Shown piece by piece: positions 43,649 through 53,132 of a stretch of DNA of 64,000 nt. Origin of the DNA: Coleofasciculus sp. B1-GNL1-01 (GTDB taxonomy: Bacteria; Cyanobacteriota; Cyanobacteriia; Cyanobacteriales; Coleofasciculaceae); the NCBI GenBank assembly GCA_040220235.1, contig JAVJTO010000082.1, one strand, 5' to 3'. The position numbers were made by a program, and so were the translations under genes. Every line of letters begins with the position of its first letter. Position 1 is the first letter of the stretch. The notes below the pieces were generated by a model. The model was not told where the DNA came from. It saw nothing but the letters and a program-made list of their open reading frames with translations, and did no database searches.

Positions 43649-43804
43649 ATTAAATTGATAAAGATACTCCAACAAGCAAGGCAAAAAATCTCAAGACGGC
43701 TAGCCGTGCAGACGCGATGACCCATAGCGTGATCGCACTCACAGATGGCTCATCCTACCCCTACTGCTACAATCAAAGCAACCTTAAACAATACATTACC
43801 GCCA

Positions 43805-44161
43805 ATGCAAATTATCATAGAAGTCCCCGATCGCCTGGGTGAAAAACTGCAACAATTGGGCGATCGCCTCCCAGAAGCCCTTGATCGCGCAATTGAGGAA
43901 CTTATCCCCCCAGAAACCATCTGCTACCAAGACGAACTCCAGATCGTCGAACTGCTTGCTAGTCAACCCAGTCCAGAAGTTATCCTTGCCATCCGCCCCA
44001 CGCCTGCTTTACAAACCCGCATGAGCGAACTGCTCGATCGCAATAAATCGGGTACACTCTCGCGATCGGAAGAAGCCGAACTTGATCGATACTTGCTTCT
44101 AGAACATTGGGTGCGTTTAGCAAAAGCTCATGCTTACAAACACTTACAAACAGCAGCATGA
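43805..44161 (+). CDS. Putative antitoxin-like protein paired with HNH nuclease
   Basis: RMSELLDRNKSGTLSRSEEAELD motif; ATGA coupling to the HNH gene. Confidence 0.65.
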   Translation: MQIIIEVPDRLGEKLQQLGDRLPEALDRAIEELIPPETICYQDELQIVELLASQPSPEVILAIRPTPALQTRMSELLDRNKSGTLSRSEEAELDRYLLLEHWVRLAKAHAYKHLQTAA

Positions 44162-44586
44162 GTTATGTATCAGCAACTCTGCGTCGGCTAGTGACTCAAC
44201 GCGCCGGAGAGCAATGCGAGTATTGCCGATTTCCCCAAACAGCTTCACTTTTCGCCTTTGAAATGGAACATATCATTGCCGAAAAACATGATGGCATCAC
44301 TGAAGTTGAAAACCTAGCTTTATCTTGTCCTTACTGCAACCGCTTCAAAGGAACTGACCTCGGTTCACTCGACCCTGAGACACAACAGCTAACCCCCTTT
44401 TTTAATCCCCGTCTTCAGAAATGGTCAGACCACTTCCAGCTAGATGGAGGAACGATCATTCCACTAACTGCCCAAGGGCGCGTAACCGCTAAAATTTTAC
44501 AATTTAACCTTCCAGAACGTATCCTCGAACGCGAGCAACTCATTATGAACGGAGAATATCCACCACCTCATCCACAAACAACATAA
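44158..44586 (+). CDS. HNH endonuclease
   Basis: RAGEQCEYC, EHIIAEKHDG, NLALSCPYCNRFKG, FFNPR..W. Confidence 0.9.
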   Translation: MSYVSATLRRLVTQRAGEQCEYCRFPQTASLFAFEMEHIIAEKHDGITEVENLALSCPYCNRFKGTDLGSLDPETQQLTPFFNPRLQKWSDHFQLDGGTIIPLTAQGRVTAKILQFNLPERILEREQLIMNGEYPPPHPQTT

Positions 44587-44872
44587 TGGCTCTTTTCCCT
44601 GGCAGTAGAGGCAGATGCACAAACCCAACAGGCGATCGCAGATTGGCATTACTGGGTGCATCAAGGCTATGAGTTTGGGTAAATTAAATTGATAAAGATA
44701 CTCTAATAAGCAAGGCAAAAAATCTCAAGACGGCTAGCCGTGCGGACGCGATCACAGACGCTTAGTTGCAGAGGCGTTAGAAAGTTTACCCCAAGTTGCG
44801 TGATGGCTGGGATTACTGGAAGCAGAGCGCGATCGCTACAATAAAGGTAATTTTCAATTATCCCTGTACTCT

Positions 44873-45202
44873 ATGACTCGTCAGGAACTGGAACATCAGC
44901 TTCTTCGCCTATCCCCTGCTGACAAAGCAGACATCATTCAGAGTCTGACCAAAACCCTGAGAACAGGCGGAAAAGGAATCAGCAAAACTCCTGGTATTTG
45001 TGGTGGAGAAGCCTGTATTGCTGGAACCCGAATTGCCGTTTGGTTATTAGTTGAAGCCCAACAGCTTGGCATCAGTGAAGCCCAACTCCTACAAGACTAT
45101 CCTCACATCAGTGCGGCTGATCTGGTCAATGCTTGGGCGTATGCATATGCTTATCCCGAAGACATTGCAGCAGCGATTCGCGCCAATAATGAGGTTGTCT
45201 AG
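44873..45202 (+). CDS. DUF433 antitoxin
   Basis: TPGICGGEACIAGTRIAV, LLQDYPHI. Confidence 0.9.
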   Translation: MTRQELEHQLLRLSPADKADIIQSLTKTLRTGGKGISKTPGICGGEACIAGTRIAVWLLVEAQQLGISEAQLLQDYPHISAADLVNAWAYAYAYPEDIAAAIRANNEVV

Positions 45203-45265: not shown

Positions 45266-45721
45266 ATGAATGATCAGAAATTAAAACGGAAAATTATAGT
45301 TATAGATGTACCCAAGTATCATCAAGCAATGAGAGCTGTATTTGAAGATGCTTTGGCATATTTTGCTGGGTTTGAAGATTTTGATTTAATTGTAATAGAT
45401 GCCAATCACACAAATTTAGCCAATGGTAATTTATTATACAAAATACAGCAAGAAATAAACCCGAAAAGATTTGTCCATATCATCTACATACAAGGCTGGC
45501 ACTATATAAATGGAGTTAAACTATTAAGTTATTTGCGTACAAATAGTTTAATTAAAACTATCCCCATTGTCATTTCATCTGCTGATGATAACATTGAAGA
45601 TTTTATGAATAAGCAATCGGTTTTCTTTGTTTCTGTTCCAATTTGTCTTTACGAATGGGGTCAAACTATAAACAGGGCATTTAAATTGGCAATTTTAGCC
45701 AGTAAAGCACAGCACAATTGA
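45266..45721 (+). CDS. AT-rich degenerate receiver-domain-like protein
   Basis: GVKLLSYLRTNSLIKTIPIVISSA resembles a REC C-half; canonical phospho-Asp and Lys not evident. Confidence 0.5.
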   Translation: MNDQKLKRKIIVIDVPKYHQAMRAVFEDALAYFAGFEDFDLIVIDANHTNLANGNLLYKIQQEINPKRFVHIIYIQGWHYINGVKLLSYLRTNSLIKTIPIVISSADDNIEDFMNKQSVFFVSVPICLYEWGQTINRAFKLAILASKAQHN

Positions 45722-45799
45722 CGGCTAAACCTGCTGCTACATCAGTAATTTGTAGGTTGGGTTGACGAAGGAAACCCAACAGCTCAGTATTATAGCGTT

Positions 45800-46131
45800 G
45801 AGCGCTGGTGTATTTACAGATTATGTTCAGAATTTACCCGACTTTGCCTATATGCGCGATCGCAGACGCTTGGTTGCAGAAACGTTGGCAGGTGTACCCC
45901 AAACGGTAAAGAATGCGAAATACAGACGGCTCAGGCGTTACCGGAGGTGCATCTTACACGAATCCTGAATTAGACTATATAGTTGTATTCCTAAAAGATT
46001 TGCCTGACTTTGGCAGTCTCCTTGTTCTCAATAGTAGGCAAATGCGGAGAGGCGATCGCGTGGCAATTATTCAGCATTCAGGCGGACACCTGAAGAAAAT
46101 CTCGATAAGGATAGTTAGGCAATGGCAATAA
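45800..46131 (+). pseudogene. Fragments of an EAD-trypsin-like serine protease gene
   Basis: YVQNLPDFAYMRDRRRLVAETLAGVPQ (EAD-like) in one frame; NPELDY...RVAIIQHSGGHLKKISI (trypsin-like) in another. Confidence 0.55.
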
Positions 46132-47243
46132 GTAACGATAGCCTTGAAAAATTATTGCCTCTACTCAGACCCTATTTACGGGATGAGAATGAGCGTCGAG
46201 CCTATTTGATCAGGGCGTTAGGCATGGATACACCTGTGTTGAATCGCCTGGTTTTAAATACACCTGTGGATTCTTTCATCACTAACATGGTGACGGAACT
46301 GGTTCGTTTAGGAAAAATACCCACTGGCAAACTAGCGCTTTGCGCCTTGTTGGAAGTGATTCGTGAAGATATGGGTGTAGACAACCGGGCAAAAGTAGAT
46401 AAACTACTTCAACAACTGCGAGAGGAGTTAACTGAGACACCTGTTGCTCAAGAATCGGTATCATCAAAACAAGACGCTCAAAATTTGCAGTGCGCTGTTA
46501 TCCTCACGGCTATTCCTATTGAATATAGAGCTGTTCGCGCTCACTTGACAAATCTCAAGGAAGAGATACACCCTGAAGGCACTATCTATGAACGAGGAAA
46601 CTTCTTATCTAATGGTCAATCATGGCAAATAGGAATTGTTGAAATCGGGGCAGGTAATACTGAGGCGGCTGTAGAAACGAAGCGAGCCATTGATTATTTT
46701 AAGCCGACTGTTGTACTCTTTGTGGGTGTAGCAGGTGGAATTAAACATGTTGACCTTGGTGACGTGGTGGCGGCAACAAAAGTTTATGGGTATGAATCCG
46801 GAAAAGTTGTCGAGGAAACGTTCCAACCTAGACCCAATACCAGCCTCGTAAGTTATCGTTTAGAACAGAGAGCTAAGGCTGAAGTTAGGAAAGAAGAGTG
46901 GTTAAACAGGATTGGAGAATCGATTCCAACACCAAAACCTCGCGCTTTCACAGGAGCCATAGCCGCAGGGGACAAAGTGGTGGCTTCAACGAAGTCTGAT
47001 GTGTATCAGCTTCTGCGGACAAACTATGGTGATGCGCTGGCGGTGGAAATGGAAAGTCATGGTTTTCTCAAGGCTGTTCGTGCTAATCCAGAAATCAATG
47101 CATTAATTATCCGTGGTATCTCCGATCTCATTGATGGTAAAAGCAATGCTGATGCGGCTGGCTCTCAGGAGAAAGCAGCACAACACGCTAGTGCTTTTGC
47201 ATTTGAAATCTTGGCAAAACTGTTAGGCGATGGCAATCAGTAG
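46122..47243 (+). CDS. Effector-associated domain (EAD) + MTA/SAH nucleosidase (PNP_UDP family)
   Basis: N-terminal ~100 aa homologous to the next gene; VILTAIPIEY, LFVGVAGG, LGDVV, AVEMESHG, IRGISD. Confidence 0.88.
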   Translation: MAISNDSLEKLLPLLRPYLRDENERRAYLIRALGMDTPVLNRLVLNTPVDSFITNMVTELVRLGKIPTGKLALCALLEVIREDMGVDNRAKVDKLLQQLREELTETPVAQESVSSKQDAQNLQCAVILTAIPIEYRAVRAHLTNLKEEIHPEGTIYERGNFLSNGQSWQIGIVEIGAGNTEAAVETKRAIDYFKPTVVLFVGVAGGIKHVDLGDVVAATKVYGYESGKVVEETFQPRPNTSLVSYRLEQRAKAEVRKEEWLNRIGESIPTPKPRAFTGAIAAGDKVVASTKSDVYQLLRTNYGDALAVEMESHGFLKAVRANPEINALIIRGISDLIDGKSNADAAGSQEKAAQHASAFAFEILAKLLGDGNQ

Positions 47244-48330
47244 CGATATAATTCAAAAATTATTGCCTCTACTTAGACCCCTTATGGAGGATGAAAACCA
47301 GCGTCGAGGATACTTGATGAGGGCGTTGGGAATGGATGCACCCGTGTTACGTCGTCTTGTCTGGAGTACGCCTGTGGATGTTTTCATTACAGGTATGATC
47401 AAGGAACTGGTGATCTTTGGTGAAATTACCCCGGGTCAACCCGCGCTTTTGGCTTTGTTGAATGTGATTCGTCAAGATGTGGGTCGAGATATTCAGCTAC
47501 ACATTGATGAACTCATTGTAGAAGTTCAAACCCAACAGAACGTTCTCCCGATTCAAACGCCGCCTCATTTACTGTTTGATTTGCTGCTCATAATGGATTT
47601 TAAGCAGCAGGTGCGGTTGGTGAAAGAAGTCATGACATCACATCAAATCGCGGCTTTCTTGGTTCACGGTGAGGCTTGCTGCGGACAGCAACTTTTAGTG
47701 ACTCGATTATTCCGGTTGAAGCCACAGTGGAAGACGATATCGCCGATTAAGATTGATGTGAATCATAACGGTATCGGGAACAAGATTCCTCTCCTGTGGC
47801 GACGAGTGGCGGCTTGGTTTGGGTTGCCAAAAGAGGCTGAACCGAAAGAGATTATTGATCAAATTTGCGATCGCGTTTCCACTCAAGATGTTATTTTTAT
47901 CTTTGATAGCGTGGAGTATATGCTGCCCAATGTCCTGGTGGCGTGGCTTCAAGAGTTCTGGGAACCTCTGGTAAAACGAATTGAGCCAGAGTCCTGTCTG
48001 ACTCCAGAGGCAACCCATCTGTTAATGTTCTTGGTAGATCATAGAGGCAGCATTTGTCAATCAACGATTCAATTGGCACAGGAATGGGAGCAACCCGAAT
48101 ATCCTCGGATTCCTTTGCACTTGCCACCCGTGAGTCCATTTCCGCCAGATATCTTAGAGGATTGGCTAGATATGGTGACGGGATTTAGGGATATACAGAT
48201 ACCTGCGGGGTTAACCTCTCAACTCTTATTAGAGAAGTCAGAAGACGGGATTCCTGAATTTGTCTATGAGGAAATTTGTTGCCACTGCGGCTATGATTGG
48301 GAGGGAGAATTGGCAAAATGGTTAATTTAG
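47230..48330 (+). CDS. EAD + inactive STAND NTPase (iSTAND)
   Basis: Same N-terminal domain as 46122; AFLVHGEACCGQQLL degenerate Walker A; VIFIFD Walker B region; FWEPL. Confidence 0.8.
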   Translation: MAISSDIIQKLLPLLRPLMEDENQRRGYLMRALGMDAPVLRRLVWSTPVDVFITGMIKELVIFGEITPGQPALLALLNVIRQDVGRDIQLHIDELIVEVQTQQNVLPIQTPPHLLFDLLLIMDFKQQVRLVKEVMTSHQIAAFLVHGEACCGQQLLVTRLFRLKPQWKTISPIKIDVNHNGIGNKIPLLWRRVAAWFGLPKEAEPKEIIDQICDRVSTQDVIFIFDSVEYMLPNVLVAWLQEFWEPLVKRIEPESCLTPEATHLLMFLVDHRGSICQSTIQLAQEWEQPEYPRIPLHLPPVSPFPPDILEDWLDMVTGFRDIQIPAGLTSQLLLEKSEDGIPEFVYEEICCHCGYDWEGELAKWLI

Positions 48331-49235
48331 CAGATGCACTGGCGGCTAGTGGGAAACCATTCTATCAGGGTAAACTCATTTCACCTCAAGAGTGTCAGGA
48401 GAATGGACTCACGCCTTATTTACCCTCACCCGAACTGATTAATGCGGTTAATCTTGCCATCTTTCTGGAAAAACGCCCCCTGTTACTCAAAGGTGAACCC
48501 GGATGTGGTAAAACTCGCTTGGCGCAGGCGGTGGCTTACGAATTAGGATTACCCTATGAGCCTTGGTATATTAAATCTACCAGTCGGGCAAGAGATGGAC
48601 TCTACACCTACGACGCCGTAAGACGATTACATGATGCTCAACTGGTGCGGATGGGGGAAAAGAGTCAATCGAAGGTTGATGATTTAAATAATTATATTGA
48701 AATGGGAGCGCTGGGACGGGCGTTTGCTAATTCCCAGCGCACGGTGGTATTGATTGATGAAATTGATAAGGCGGATATTGATTTCCCTAACGATTTGTTA
48801 CGAGAGCTTGACGAGCAGCAATTCGCGATTGAGGAGACGGGAACGGAAGTTAAGGCAAATTTCCCTCCGATTGTATTTGTGACGAGCAACGATGAAAAGG
48901 ATTTACCCGATGCCTTTCTGCGCCGTTGTCTGTTTTATTACATTGAATTTCCTAATTCACAATTAACCGAGATTGTCAAGGCTCACTTTCCGGAATCATC
49001 GCCGGAGTTAGTCGAGGGAGCAGTGCAGCGTTTTAGGGAACTGCGGCAGACAATGGAGAAAGGGAAATCAGGAAAAAAGGTGAGTACCAGTGAGTTGCTG
49101 GATTGGTTTGCCGTGTTGCGTCAATTTCCTCAAGATCAGGTGTTGCAGCAGCTTGAGGGTAAATTGCCGTTTTCAGAAGTGCTGCTGAAGAAATGGGAAG
49201 ATCATCTACGTTATAGCAGTAGAGATATTTCTTAG
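48318..49235 (+). CDS. MoxR-family AAA+ ATPase
   Basis: PLLLKGEPGCGKT, LYTYDAV.RL.D, VLIDEIDKADIDFPNDLL, TSNDEKDLPDAFLRRC. Confidence 0.93.
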   Translation: MVNLADALAASGKPFYQGKLISPQECQENGLTPYLPSPELINAVNLAIFLEKRPLLLKGEPGCGKTRLAQAVAYELGLPYEPWYIKSTSRARDGLYTYDAVRRLHDAQLVRMGEKSQSKVDDLNNYIEMGALGRAFANSQRTVVLIDEIDKADIDFPNDLLRELDEQQFAIEETGTEVKANFPPIVFVTSNDEKDLPDAFLRRCLFYYIEFPNSQLTEIVKAHFPESSPELVEGAVQRFRELRQTMEKGKSGKKVSTSELLDWFAVLRQFPQDQVLQQLEGKLPFSEVLLKKWEDHLRYSSRDIS

Positions 49236-49315
49236 GAGAAACCGACTGGTGTAGAGACGTTGCATGCAACGGCTCTAAATAACATAAATGTTCTGTTCGA
49301 CTCGAACCGTTAACC

Positions 49316-50407
49316 ATGAACCCCAATCAGTTACCACTGCTGGATATTTTTAACAGCCTGCGACAGCGCCATGGTTTGCCGTTGGGGGTGGATGAGTATT
49401 TAACAGTCTTGCGATCGCTTCAATCTGGCTTTGGTATAGGTACTCGTCAGGAAATCGAGCAGCTTTGCTGTCTGGTGTGGGCAAAATCTGAGGAAGAGAG
49501 TCGCCTAATTCGACGGCTATTTGAGCAAATGTGGCGGTATTCTCCAGATACTTCTGATCAACCTAAACCCTCATCTCCATCACCAGAGTCAGAAGAATCC
49601 TCGGCTGAAATACCCGAATCTGAACCCTTACCGGAATTGGAACCACAGCCCAATTTGACCCCAGAACCCGTGCAAGCTGTGCAAGCCGTGCGGAGTAGTC
49701 GGCGGGATAGGGAATTGAGACGCCCTCGCTATAGCCTACTAACTGAGTATTTCCCGGTGACTCGCCGACAGATGAAGCAAACCTGGCGTTATTTGCGTCG
49801 CCCAGTGCGGGAAGGAATCCCCACAGAATTAGATGTGGAAGCAACGGTGGCAAAAATGGGGCGTGAGGGTATTTTACTCGAACCCGTGCTGATACCTCCC
49901 CGTAAAAATCGGGCGGATTTGGTGTTAATGATTGACCAAGATGGCTCAATGGTACCCTTTCACCAGCTATCACGACAGTTAGTCGAAACAGCACAGCGCG
50001 GTGGACGGTTGAGACAGACCCGTGTATTTTATTTTCATGACTATCCTGATCAGTACCTGTATCGTCATCCCGCGATGTTGAATGCTCAATCGATGTCTGA
50101 GGTATTGGAAGAGATTGGAGAACGGGCGGTTGTACTAATTATCAGCGATGCAGGAGCCGCACGGGGAAATTTTGACCCAGAACGGATTGACAGCACTAAA
50201 GTATGGATTGAGCAGGTACAGCAGTCAGTACGGTATTGCGCTTGGCTCAACCCAATGCCGAATCAATGGTGGCAAAATACCACGGCTGGGGAAATTGCCC
50301 GTTTATTACCCATGTTTGAGATGAGTCGTCAGGGAATGAACGCGGCGATTGGTGTATTGCGAGGCAGATATATCGCTTGGGAGAGGATGTACTCATGGCT
50401 GCTGTAA
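49316..50407 (+). CDS. vWA domain protein (MoxR partner)
   Basis: ELDVEATV, MIDQDGSM MIDAS-like motif, IISDAGAARG, WLNPMP. Confidence 0.88.
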   Translation: MNPNQLPLLDIFNSLRQRHGLPLGVDEYLTVLRSLQSGFGIGTRQEIEQLCCLVWAKSEEESRLIRRLFEQMWRYSPDTSDQPKPSSPSPESEESSAEIPESEPLPELEPQPNLTPEPVQAVQAVRSSRRDRELRRPRYSLLTEYFPVTRRQMKQTWRYLRRPVREGIPTELDVEATVAKMGREGILLEPVLIPPRKNRADLVLMIDQDGSMVPFHQLSRQLVETAQRGGRLRQTRVFYFHDYPDQYLYRHPAMLNAQSMSEVLEEIGERAVVLIISDAGAARGNFDPERIDSTKVWIEQVQQSVRYCAWLNPMPNQWWQNTTAGEIARLLPMFEMSRQGMNAAIGVLRGRYIAWERMYSWLL

Positions 50408-52137
50408 CATCTAATCCTAACCAAGCCCGTGCTAGGCGAGTTGCAGTTAAACGGGTTGAAGGGTTTGCCAAGCAATTTGGCGAAGCCCATCGAAACTTGG
50501 CGCGTCACGCCGCATTTCCCCTCTCACTCACCCCTGATTTGCTCTACCAAATTTGGGCAAACTTTGTCCCGGAAGCGCCTTGGGAAGCTGTAGCTCATCT
50601 GCTGCTGTCGCGCCTGTGTCGGCAGGTGGGGTATGAGATGTATGAAATGGATATAAGCGATCGAAATCTGTTATTGAGGGAATTAAAAGAGCAGTTTGGG
50701 CAAGAAAGATTAGACGAATTGGCTGAGTTTTTACTGGATTATGTAGCACAGCGACTGACTGATGATGATCCGGATACTCAGAGTTTAGCTGAGGCTCAGG
50801 AATGGACAGCGTTGGCGTATACTAAGCCGAATGAACTAGCGCGTGAATTGGCAGAGGCTTTGAGCGCAAGGGTGAAACAAGAGGATATGACAGAGGTGTT
50901 TCGTCTTACTTCGTTGGTAGAAACTTTTGCAGAGCCGTTGCTACAGGCAGGATTTGAACCATTATTAATTTACTCTCGCCAGATGAGCACTTTTGTTCGC
51001 GGTAATCATAAAGATGTAGAGGTTCAACTTGCCTTGTTAAAGCGAAAACCACATTACGTGCAGATTGCTGGAGTAAAATTACCTACTTTACGTCTCAATA
51101 CTCAGGATATAGTCTCCGAGCAGAATAAAGATGAACAACTACGTCAACTTATTACAGAAGTGCTTAAATATCCGACACAAAGTCTGGTGCGACGACAAGC
51201 AATGAATCAACTGCTCCGAACAATTCAAAAACTACCAGGATTAATGAAATCTTCGCACTTAGAGTATGAGTCTGCTCTACAGCAAACGTGGTTGAGCTTC
51301 ATCCAAAATATTGATAAATTTAATCTAAATAAACCTTCGCTTCACAAGGAATTAATACTATGGATAAATAACAATATTCGTCATGAAATTCTAAAATATA
51401 ATTTAGATGAATACAGAAAAAAACGAATGTCTGTTGCTGTTGATAATGTTGATGTTGCTGATTTTTTAATTGATTTTAATGATGGTTTAGAAGAAGTTGA
51501 AAGAATAAACAAACAGGATATTTCGCAAAAATTAAACTTATTTATGTCACATAGTTTTAGAAATATGCCAGAGGGATTGCAAAAAATTTACCAACTTAGT
51601 AAAGTTATTCAAATATTGCAAATAAATGATATTGACACGCCAGCTATATTTAAATTATCACGTCGTGAATATTCTATTAAACTTAAAGAATGCAAACGAT
51701 TATTATTGTTTAATTTAAACAAATGGAGTAGGACTAATTTAAACATTAATCTAGATTACAAAGACACAAATCAAGTTAATACTTTGGTCAATTATATAGA
51801 TGATTGGGTGATATCATATTGCCAGTCTTGTTTATATCAAACTTTACAAGATTTTCTACTTCATAAGTTAAGTCATGAAGCCCAATTCTTGCTCTCATAC
51901 TACAATCATAATTGTGACACACAAATACTAGCTCAATCTCTAAATATGTCAGAATCAGTAGTAAATCAAAAAATCACAATAGTTAAGCAAAAATTAAAAG
52001 AAAGGTTACAGGAATGGGTACAAGAAAATTTTGATATTTCTCTAGATTTATCAATAACCGTAGAAGAAAATATAGTTACATTTGTTGAAACATGGTTACA
52101 AGATATCTCAAACTGGAATAAGGATATTTGGTGCTAG
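50395..52137 (+). CDS. vWA-MoxR-associated protein: conserved N-terminal domain + AT-rich sigma-70-like/helical C-terminal region
   Basis: LARHAAFPLSLTPDLLYQIW...LLLSRLCRQVGYEMYEM N-domain; DEQLRQL...RRQAMNQLL...ALQQTW...NIDKF resembles cyanobacterial sigma-like proteins. Confidence 0.65.
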   Translation: MAAVTSNPNQARARRVAVKRVEGFAKQFGEAHRNLARHAAFPLSLTPDLLYQIWANFVPEAPWEAVAHLLLSRLCRQVGYEMYEMDISDRNLLLRELKEQFGQERLDELAEFLLDYVAQRLTDDDPDTQSLAEAQEWTALAYTKPNELARELAEALSARVKQEDMTEVFRLTSLVETFAEPLLQAGFEPLLIYSRQMSTFVRGNHKDVEVQLALLKRKPHYVQIAGVKLPTLRLNTQDIVSEQNKDEQLRQLITEVLKYPTQSLVRRQAMNQLLRTIQKLPGLMKSSHLEYESALQQTWLSFIQNIDKFNLNKPSLHKELILWINNNIRHEILKYNLDEYRKKRMSVAVDNVDVADFLIDFNDGLEEVERINKQDISQKLNLFMSHSFRNMPEGLQKIYQLSKVIQILQINDIDTPAIFKLSRREYSIKLKECKRLLLFNLNKWSRTNLNINLDYKDTNQVNTLVNYIDDWVISYCQSCLYQTLQDFLLHKLSHEAQFLLSYYNHNCDTQILAQSLNMSESVVNQKITIVKQKLKERLQEWVQENFDISLDLSITVEENIVTFVETWLQDISNWNKDIWC

Positions 52138-52155
52138 TAAATAGGAGATTGCTTT

Positions 52156-52485
52156 ATGGCAAGATTAAATTATCCCGAACTGGTGAAAACAATCCTTAAG
52201 ACGCACTTTGCCCAACTTCAAGATGACGTAACTGAAGTACAGTTAATTCTTGATAGAGAACGTAATCACTACTTATTAATGCTCGTGGGGTGGCACAACC
52301 AACGACGAGAGTATGGTAGCCTAATTCACATTGATATCAAGGATAACAAAATTTGGATTCAGAGTGATGGAACAGAAGTGGGAGTTGCCAACGAATTGGT
52401 TGAGGCTGGAGTGCCACATAAGGATATCGTATTGGCGTTTAAATCTCCCTTCAAGCGACAATTTACCGACTATGCCGTTTGTTAA
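52156..52485 (+). CDS. xisI: XisI family protein
   Basis: D.ERNHYLL..VGW, IHIDIKDNKIWIQ.DGTE, LVEAGVP..DIVLAF. Confidence 0.9.
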   Translation: MARLNYPELVKTILKTHFAQLQDDVTEVQLILDRERNHYLLMLVGWHNQRREYGSLIHIDIKDNKIWIQSDGTEVGVANELVEAGVPHKDIVLAFKSPFKRQFTDYAVC

Positions 52486-52524: not shown

Positions 52525-52779
52525 ATGAAAGCCATTGAACTAACAGGAACCCTGGATGAAACAGGTCAATTATCACTCGATCATCCCATTGAAAATGTTG
52601 CCCCTAGTCGCGTGCGAATTATTGTACTGTTTCCCGATGTTACCGAAGAAGTCGAAACCGATCCCGATGATACTCCCCTTGAAGAAGTGAAAGCAAGTCT
52701 CAGGAGAGCTTTACAGGAAGCAAAAGCAGGACAACGCATACCCCTTTCTGAGATGTGGGAAGGAATCGATGTCGAATGA
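52525..52779 (+). CDS. Putative type II antitoxin
   Basis: MKAIELTGTLDETGQL.LD, SLRRALQEAKAGQRIPLSEMW; overlaps the RelE-like gene. Confidence 0.7.
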   Translation: MKAIELTGTLDETGQLSLDHPIENVAPSRVRIIVLFPDVTEEVETDPDDTPLEEVKASLRRALQEAKAGQRIPLSEMWEGIDVE

Positions 52780-53132
52780 AACGCCTTTAGTCAAAATCGA
52801 TTTAACACCAGAGTACAAACGAAATCTGCGGAAATTGTCAAAAAAATATCGACAGATACGCTCGGATGTTCAGCCAATTATTGAACAACTCCAAGGGGGT
52901 AACTTTATTGGCGATCGCATCCCCGGAATGAGTGAAGAATATGTCATCTTAAAGTTAAGGATTAAAAATAGCAACATTCAAAAAGGAAAAAGCGCAGGTT
53001 ATAGACTGAATCTATCAAGTTGAGTCACCGACGAATGTACTTCTATTAACAATTTATTCTAAATCAGACCAAGAAGATATTAGTCCTAATGAAATTCGTA
53101 GTATCTTAGCTGAGTTCGATGGGGATGAATAA
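52769..53132 (+). pseudogene. RelE/HigB-like toxin with a +1 frameshift
   Basis: ...KGKSAGYRL then, after removing one A at 53009-53010, IYQVESPTNVLLLTIYSKSDQEDISPNEIRSILAEFDGDE*. Confidence 0.85.

Follow-up and report, generated by a model that had tools for sequence, protein, structure and literature searches.

Which end of an iSTAND ternary system senses the invader, and which end acts? Two published readings conflict on this point: Kaur et al. (2020, PMC7159879), who defined the iSTAND systems and the idea of their coupling through effector-associated domains (EADs), let the iSTAND protein sense, whereas in Dore 2024 (PMC10907252) the proposed direction is reversed and sensing falls to the variable domain linked to vWA. 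We examined the question in a five-gene operon of Coleofasciculus sp. B1-GNL1-01 (contig JAVJTO010000082.1); the window is the whole analysed stretch of 64,000 nucleotides, and genomes and loci used for comparison carry G and L numbers, G000 being this genome. The five genes are the iSTAND ternary system predicted by Kaur et al., in the form with a separate vWA-L gene (Kaur et al. 2021, PMC8195603), and the last gene carries a chimeric sigma-70-like cargo on its vWA-L part. The genes are as follows.

46122..47243, plus strand: gene 1, EAD8-nucleosidase; EAD8 (residues ~1-103) and an MTAN-like nucleosidase (PNP_UDP_1), likely the output enzyme.
47230..48330, plus strand: gene 2, EAD8-iSTAND; adaptor and inactive STAND nucleotide-binding domain, likely the N-terminal half of a split STAND protein.
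48318..49235, plus strand: gene 3, MoxR AAA+ ATPase; intact Walker A, Walker B and arginine finger, frame open from 48297.
49316..50407, plus strand: gene 4, CoxE-type vWA co-chaperone; both metal-binding aspartates present.
50395..52137, plus strand: gene 5, vWA-L with the chimeric sigma-70-like cargo; frame open from 50377, from which its residues are counted.

The first-pass annotation of this DNA had proposed five co-oriented, mostly overlapping intact genes, and this description held: all five co-oriented frames are open (46122-47243, 47230-48330, 48297-49235, 49316-50407 and 50377-52137), and if translation begins at the likely ATG codons at 48318 and 50395, neighbouring genes overlap by 13-14 base pairs at three junctions, while the fourth, between MoxR and vWA, is a gap of 80 base pairs. 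The proposed families EAD, iSTAND, MoxR and vWA were all recovered by Pfam above cut-off: EAD8 (77.1 bits) and PNP_UDP_1 (95 bits) in gene 1, EAD8 (73.2 bits) and iSTAND (PF19995, model positions 4-163, 73.5 bits) in gene 2, AAA_5 (51.6 bits) in the MoxR gene and VWA_CoxE (46.5 bits) in the vWA gene. The domain of about 100 amino acids that the annotation had seen at the N-terminus of the first two genes is thus EAD8 in both by profile, and the two copies share 56% identity over 108 amino acids (E 4e-42); the degenerate Walker A motif GEACCGQQ was likewise found where expected, at residue 147 of gene 2 and without the lysine. The family assignments partly support the annotation's reading of a conflict system, which had left out gene 5, the carrier of the most informative features. 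That gene had been called a vWA-associated protein; the annotation had overlooked its make-up of vWA-L and a chimeric sigma-like cargo, as well as a repeat element that lies between MoxR and vWA. For gene 5 we obtained a weak Sigma70_r2 match in Pfam and a TIGR02937 match (E 6.6e-6).

The gene order fits the iSTAND2 table of PMC8195603, and the domain scored far over cut-off on the iSTAND model, the single profile of the kind with which it was compared. The ratio of non-synonymous to synonymous differences (pN/pS) against congeners was 0.07-0.29 over whole genes or domains, which indicates purifying selection and argues against evident ruin of the operon; the sole exception (0.50) was gene 1 against the nearly identical copy of G007, with 13 changes only. 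The lowest range, 0.07-0.10, belonged to MoxR against three congeners, and the catalytic motifs of MoxR and the metal-binding motifs of vWA were kept. Backbone contigs were present in two RNA runs, although contigs cannot show transcription, and coverage of the cargo region was next to nil in four runs. Scans for promoters and terminators stayed at chance level (16 against 15.3 and 8 against 7.0, respectively).

The predicted receptor-like halves and the sigma-like cargo

50428..51051, plus strand: vWA-L; predicted winged helix, then helical arm, similar to the WHD-arm part of STAND/NLR ATPases.
51033..52147, plus strand: exchanged low-GC (guanine-plus-cytosine) cargo cassette, delimited by comparison with G003 and by an environmental contig.
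51118..51411, plus strand: sigma region 2-like domain from a ~230-amino-acid cyanobacterial extracytoplasmic function (ECF)-like family; residues of its C-terminal helix altered.
51412..52137, plus strand: two sigma region 4-like helix-turn-helix (HTH) units from a ~480-amino-acid cyanobacterial family; GC 0.275, with a degenerate first recognition helix.

No Pfam model exists for vWA-L, which was named from its position and from the description in PMC8195603, where it is called an alpha-helical linker. The predicted structure instead gives it a winged helix followed by an arm, as in STAND proteins. Comparison of its sequence with STAND winged helices was negative by hhalign (0.4%), by a Pfam scan of 61 members and by a PDB profile search, and Foldseek returned no match at E <= 0.001 for either predicted model. 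The predicted likeness suggests that gene 2 and vWA-L may be two halves of one split immune-receptor-like ATPase.

The cargo behind vWA-L is a chimera of two cyanobacterial sigma-70-like families, low in GC and swapped in at this position. Its predicted structure comprises one sigma-2 fold and two sigma-4 folds (predicted local distance difference test score, pLDDT, 89). Together with the complete small sigma carried by the related vWA-L fusions L044 and L049, and with the vWA-L+HTH cargos listed in Kaur et al. 2021 (PMC8195603), this structure could speak for a functional sigma factor or transcription activator in tethered form, that is, for a MalT-like split STAND protein with transcriptional output, the nucleosidase being secondary. 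We consider this quite improbable: family-conserved residues are gone from both helices that, from their place in the fold, would read DNA, the R and D positions of sigma-2 are also lost in the L044 and L049 fusions, and the sigma-4 half has been swapped for one of another family. The central sigma-2 motif is retained, as is the hydrophobic core of the AT-rich sigma-4 half (242 codons), and the cargo is likely a disabled sigma factor.

Both donor families precede DUF1822 and CHAT genes in all five loci examined in this genome. Triads of an ECF-like sigma, DUF1822 and CHAT(-CHASE2 or PBP) number at least five here (L027, L110, L111, L112 and L113), and the end of the L044 cargo has an 81% identical counterpart in a sigma-4-like piece fused to a caspase (P0274).

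A second copy of the chimeric cargo was not recovered: a word-indexed search gave only the protein itself, none of 122 candidate metagenome stretches was confirmed, and the ESM Atlas held generic sigma-4 clusters only. In 400 genomes sampled from the class, no sigma-2 match extended to where the vWA-L linker starts (the first residue reached was 29 of the 157 in the query), and a search with the L044 cargo gave three proteins, whose names or domains pointed in no case to a length close to that of a vWA-L fusion. The join between vWA-L and sigma-2 is 65-66% identical over 340 amino acids in two Nostocales genomes.

Comparison with G003 shows the cargo to be an exchanged cassette. The two loci are 92-94% identical over the first EAD8, iSTAND, MoxR, vWA and vWA-L up to 51032, and the similarity resumes at 52148; G003 carries a TIR domain behind EAD8 and AAA_35 behind vWA-L, and an environmental contig links 50972 to 52148 through 1150 other bases in place of the cargo. 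Cassettes have therefore been exchanged both at the cargo slot and behind EAD8. We compared 78 related loci with vWA-L, in 62 of which iSTAND was detected, and found many different cargos among them. These include the CRISPR-associated Cas_APE2256 in four loci (L043, L045, L057 and L084); vWA-L also occurs with DUF1257 in three loci and with the pterin-binding DUF4346 in one.

Proposed EAD8 coupling and the nucleosidase

The coupling of the nucleosidase to the core through EAD8 is supported indirectly, by the distribution of the domains among loci. A further EAD8 copy was found at 17 of the 19 loci with an EAD8-bearing iSTAND and at two of the 43 with another iSTAND, counts that include kin and are not independent. 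Genes combining bDLD1 with PNP occur at two loci near a bDLD1-tipped iSTAND gene (the tip was confirmed as bDLD1 in one of them), and two of the best 120 among 3418 nucleosidase homologs are fused directly to iSTAND. EAD8-PNP itself was present in none of the 78 vWA-L loci. Two further genes of this genome might be partners in an EAD8 network: an EAD8-NB-ARC-TPR gene behind a trypsin-like gene (L011 4735-10103, G000:C49) and a stand-alone EAD8 stub (L010 6842-7237, G000:C31).

In gene 1, residues E134, E309-M310-E311, R331, S334 and D335 line up with the catalytic residues of E. coli MtnN, and D335 aligns with D472 of a 505-amino-acid Cap17-like protein from a locus of the cyclic oligonucleotide-based antiphage signalling system (CBASS), a position that Rousset et al. 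(bioRxiv 10.1101/2023.01.24.525353) had mutated. The nearest named relative is a Coleofasciculus protein (98%), and relatives fused to TPALS (PF18178) stand at 65-69% identity. Domains counted by hand among the same best 120 homologs were PF18178, as in Cap17, in 6, EAD8 in 8 and PF19960, which we take to be EAD7, in 10. The nucleosidase scored 79.6 bits against a cut-off of 169 bits for the MtnN equivalog. It is 26% identical to each of the MtnN, Cap17-like and DtcC-like proteins, and the deep branches of the tree do not place it; ATP is a likely substrate. We also considered a housekeeping role: the genome contains no second match of this kind, yet a close homolog occurs in just four of eight congeners, which makes such a role unlikely.

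Direction of signalling

The reading that we tentatively prefer, at a little less than an even chance, is a split NLR-type switch against invaders, with the tail as bait, the MoxR-vWA pair as an external switch and the EAD8-nucleosidase as output. It is drawn from the order of the parts, which is that of a divided NLR: EAD8 and the dead nucleotide-binding domain precede the MoxR-vWA pair, and the predicted winged helix and arm with the variable tail follow it. EAD8-iSTAND would provide the adaptor and the dead nucleotide-binding domain, vWA-L the predicted winged helix and arm, and the two halves would associate. A phage protein that targets sigma factors, or a disturbed sigma/DUF1822/CHAT module, might then engage the pseudo-sigma cargo; MoxR-vWA would give the ATP-driven remodelling that a dead NTPase cannot, and iSTAND would oligomerise. 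The clustered EAD8 domains could finally activate the nucleosidase, deplete ATP and end the infection in that cell of the filament. A more specific version has the switch of the split NLR outsourced to MoxR-vWA and the hypervariable domains of vWA-L acting as integrated decoys, the pseudo-sigma guarding transcription such that a phage protein of anti-sigma or polymerase-takeover type would, on hitting it, set off EAD8-coupled destruction of ATP; this we offer as a possibility that is open to considerable doubt. Decoys derived from inactive effectors had already been raised in PMC7159879.

The main weakness of this split switch lies in the nucleosidases and other enzymes that fill the tail or cargo slot in relatives. 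The output domain of MalT is C-terminal as well. Two findings limit the support for EAD8 coupling. The EAD8 copies cluster by slot and not by locus in a 72-row tree, in which locus-specific co-evolution of EAD8 pairs was looked for and not seen; their mean identity, over few columns, was 0.459 within loci and 0.476 between loci, and the tendency stated in PMC7159879 for adjacent EAD copies to be each other's closest relatives does not hold in this tree. The copies thus look interchangeable and may double as recombination points. In G004, the EAD8-PNP gene adjoins EAD8-WD40 and XisI genes, with no core at that site.

The last case could also fit a chance assembly at a recombination hot spot made by the EAD8 repeats. 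On this view the nucleosidase would work independently of the core or the cargo would be undergoing decay, and the system would have no part in defence against phages. Rearranged or broken versions of the locus are frequent in congeners, the chimera was not found elsewhere in the searches made, and the system on contig C151 of this genome has a broken cargo gene. We regard this explanation as improbable, since every frame is open, the core is under purifying selection, the sigma-4 part has kept its hydrophobic core and the vWA-L-sigma-2 join recurs in the Nostocales genomes mentioned above.

In the direction published by Kaur et al. and set out in PMC7159879, iSTAND senses the invader and MoxR-vWA frees the cargo, which acts as effector; at this locus the pseudo-sigma would then occupy core RNA polymerase without reading promoters, as a dominant-negative protein, and the nucleosidase would be a co-effector or make a second messenger. 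The enzymes in the cargo slot of relatives and the retained central sigma-2 motif agree with this direction, as do the changes in iSTAND. In residues 147-272 of gene 2 (47668-48045) there are 18 amino-acid changes that occur in this genome alone. Many affect positions conserved across genera, and they cluster near the places we infer for the P-loop, Walker B and sensor 1; MoxR has one such change (Fisher p 0.009), a difference that a changing sensor might show. A paper on bacteriophage exclusion (BREX; PMC12839542) remarks on the rapid evolution of these iSTANDs and on their reduced C-terminal bundle. Positive selection on iSTAND found no support (private N:S 18:12 against 8:10 in three congeners, p 0.37), and just two of the 18 private residues are common to the sigma-carrying L049. 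The changes track neither the nucleosidase nor the sigma cargo, and G007 has a consensus iSTAND despite the common EAD8-PNP. In addition, most cargos lack an obvious toxic activity, the operon has no protease gene to free the cargo, and the cargo occupies the position of the STAND sensor. We therefore hold the published direction to be somewhat unlikely for this locus.

Flanking features and relation to known systems

49215..49333, no strand: 119-base-pair insertion; genome-wide palindromic repeat that replaces the MoxR C-terminus and vWA start of relatives.
52156..52485, plus strand: XisI gene (Pfam); conserved right-hand flank of the variable locus, the same in G002, G003 and G004.

Contigs of three runs link 49214 to 49334 through 26 other bases, and the 21-base core of the insertion has 86 exact copies in the genome. 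A second high-copy repeat element lies at about 45745-45782. In many relatives (L036, L039, L046-L048 and others) a conserved gene of 212 amino acids sits between vWA and vWA-L. Upstream of the operon is a low-GC CheY-like orphan receiver gene (45266-45721), present in G007 and absent from the G003 locus, and the operon is bordered at 43745-45202 and 52525-53023 by HNH, DUF433 and small toxin-antitoxin-like gene pairs. Arrays of EAD8-NACHT, EAD8-trypsin, EAD8-PNP and EAD8-WD40 genes stand ahead of XisI in L018 and L020 (G004 and G002), with no ternary core at those sites. This genome has three iSTAND loci in all, and its EAD8 domains number four. A second iSTAND system (L008 6590-11577, G000:C151) combines HTH-iSTAND with the broken vWA-L/AAA_35 gene, and L009 (5274-12584, G000:C44) comprises Trypco1, trypsin-EAD9, EAD9-iSTAND, MoxR, vWA and vWA-L-FGS.

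The operon shares with the systems of Kaur et al. an iSTAND with N-terminal EAD, MoxR, a CoxE-type vWA, a separate vWA-L-cargo gene, a neighbour gene with the cognate EAD, a variable cargo and a multicellular cyanobacterial host; it differs in the predicted STAND-type winged helix and arm of vWA-L, described there as an alpha-helical linker, and in adjacent EAD8 copies that are not mutual closest relatives. PMC8195603 lists EAD8+iSTAND2, vWA-L+HTH and vWA-L+SLOG+PNPase, while rows for a sigma cargo or EAD8-PNP were not found in the available text and table portions of Kaur et al. 2020 and 2021; the word sigma is absent from the main text of PMC7159879, whose source data may list sigma cargos. 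In the literature searched we found no experimental test of MoxR-vWA ternary systems. With the STAND/NLR ATPases (MalT, Apaf-1, CED-4, plant NLRs and bacterial Avs) the operon has in common adaptor, nucleotide-binding domain, winged helix, arm and variable C-terminal domain, but here these are spread over two genes with a dead NTPase and the MoxR-vWA pair between the halves, and the sequence likeness of vWA-L is undetectable. It may thus work like a STAND protein and not be filed as one, owing to the degenerate Walker A and the split genes. The nucleosidase resembles the ATP nucleosidases Cap17 and DtcC of Rousset et al. in its PF01048 domain, in the catalytic Asp equivalent to D472, in common alignment gaps against MtnN and in close relatives with TPALS fusion, but its coupling would run through EAD8, and it is only 26% identical to the enterobacterial Cap17-like protein. 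Cyanobacterial ECF-like sigma/DUF1822/CHAT modules were noted in PMC8195603; the cargo has its donor families from such modules, but is a two-family chimera on vWA-L with altered recognition helices and no DUF1822 neighbour.

Should vWA-L prove to be the winged helix and arm that iSTAND lacks, NLR logic could be applied to the class, and experiments could address directly which way the signal runs; the structural lead may apply to the whole class. This locus suits such a test, with five genes in ~6 kb, a known catalytic residue, an ATP/adenine readout and sharp natural cargo swaps. A sigma-factor decoy, if true, would point to phage proteins that attack cyanobacterial transcription.

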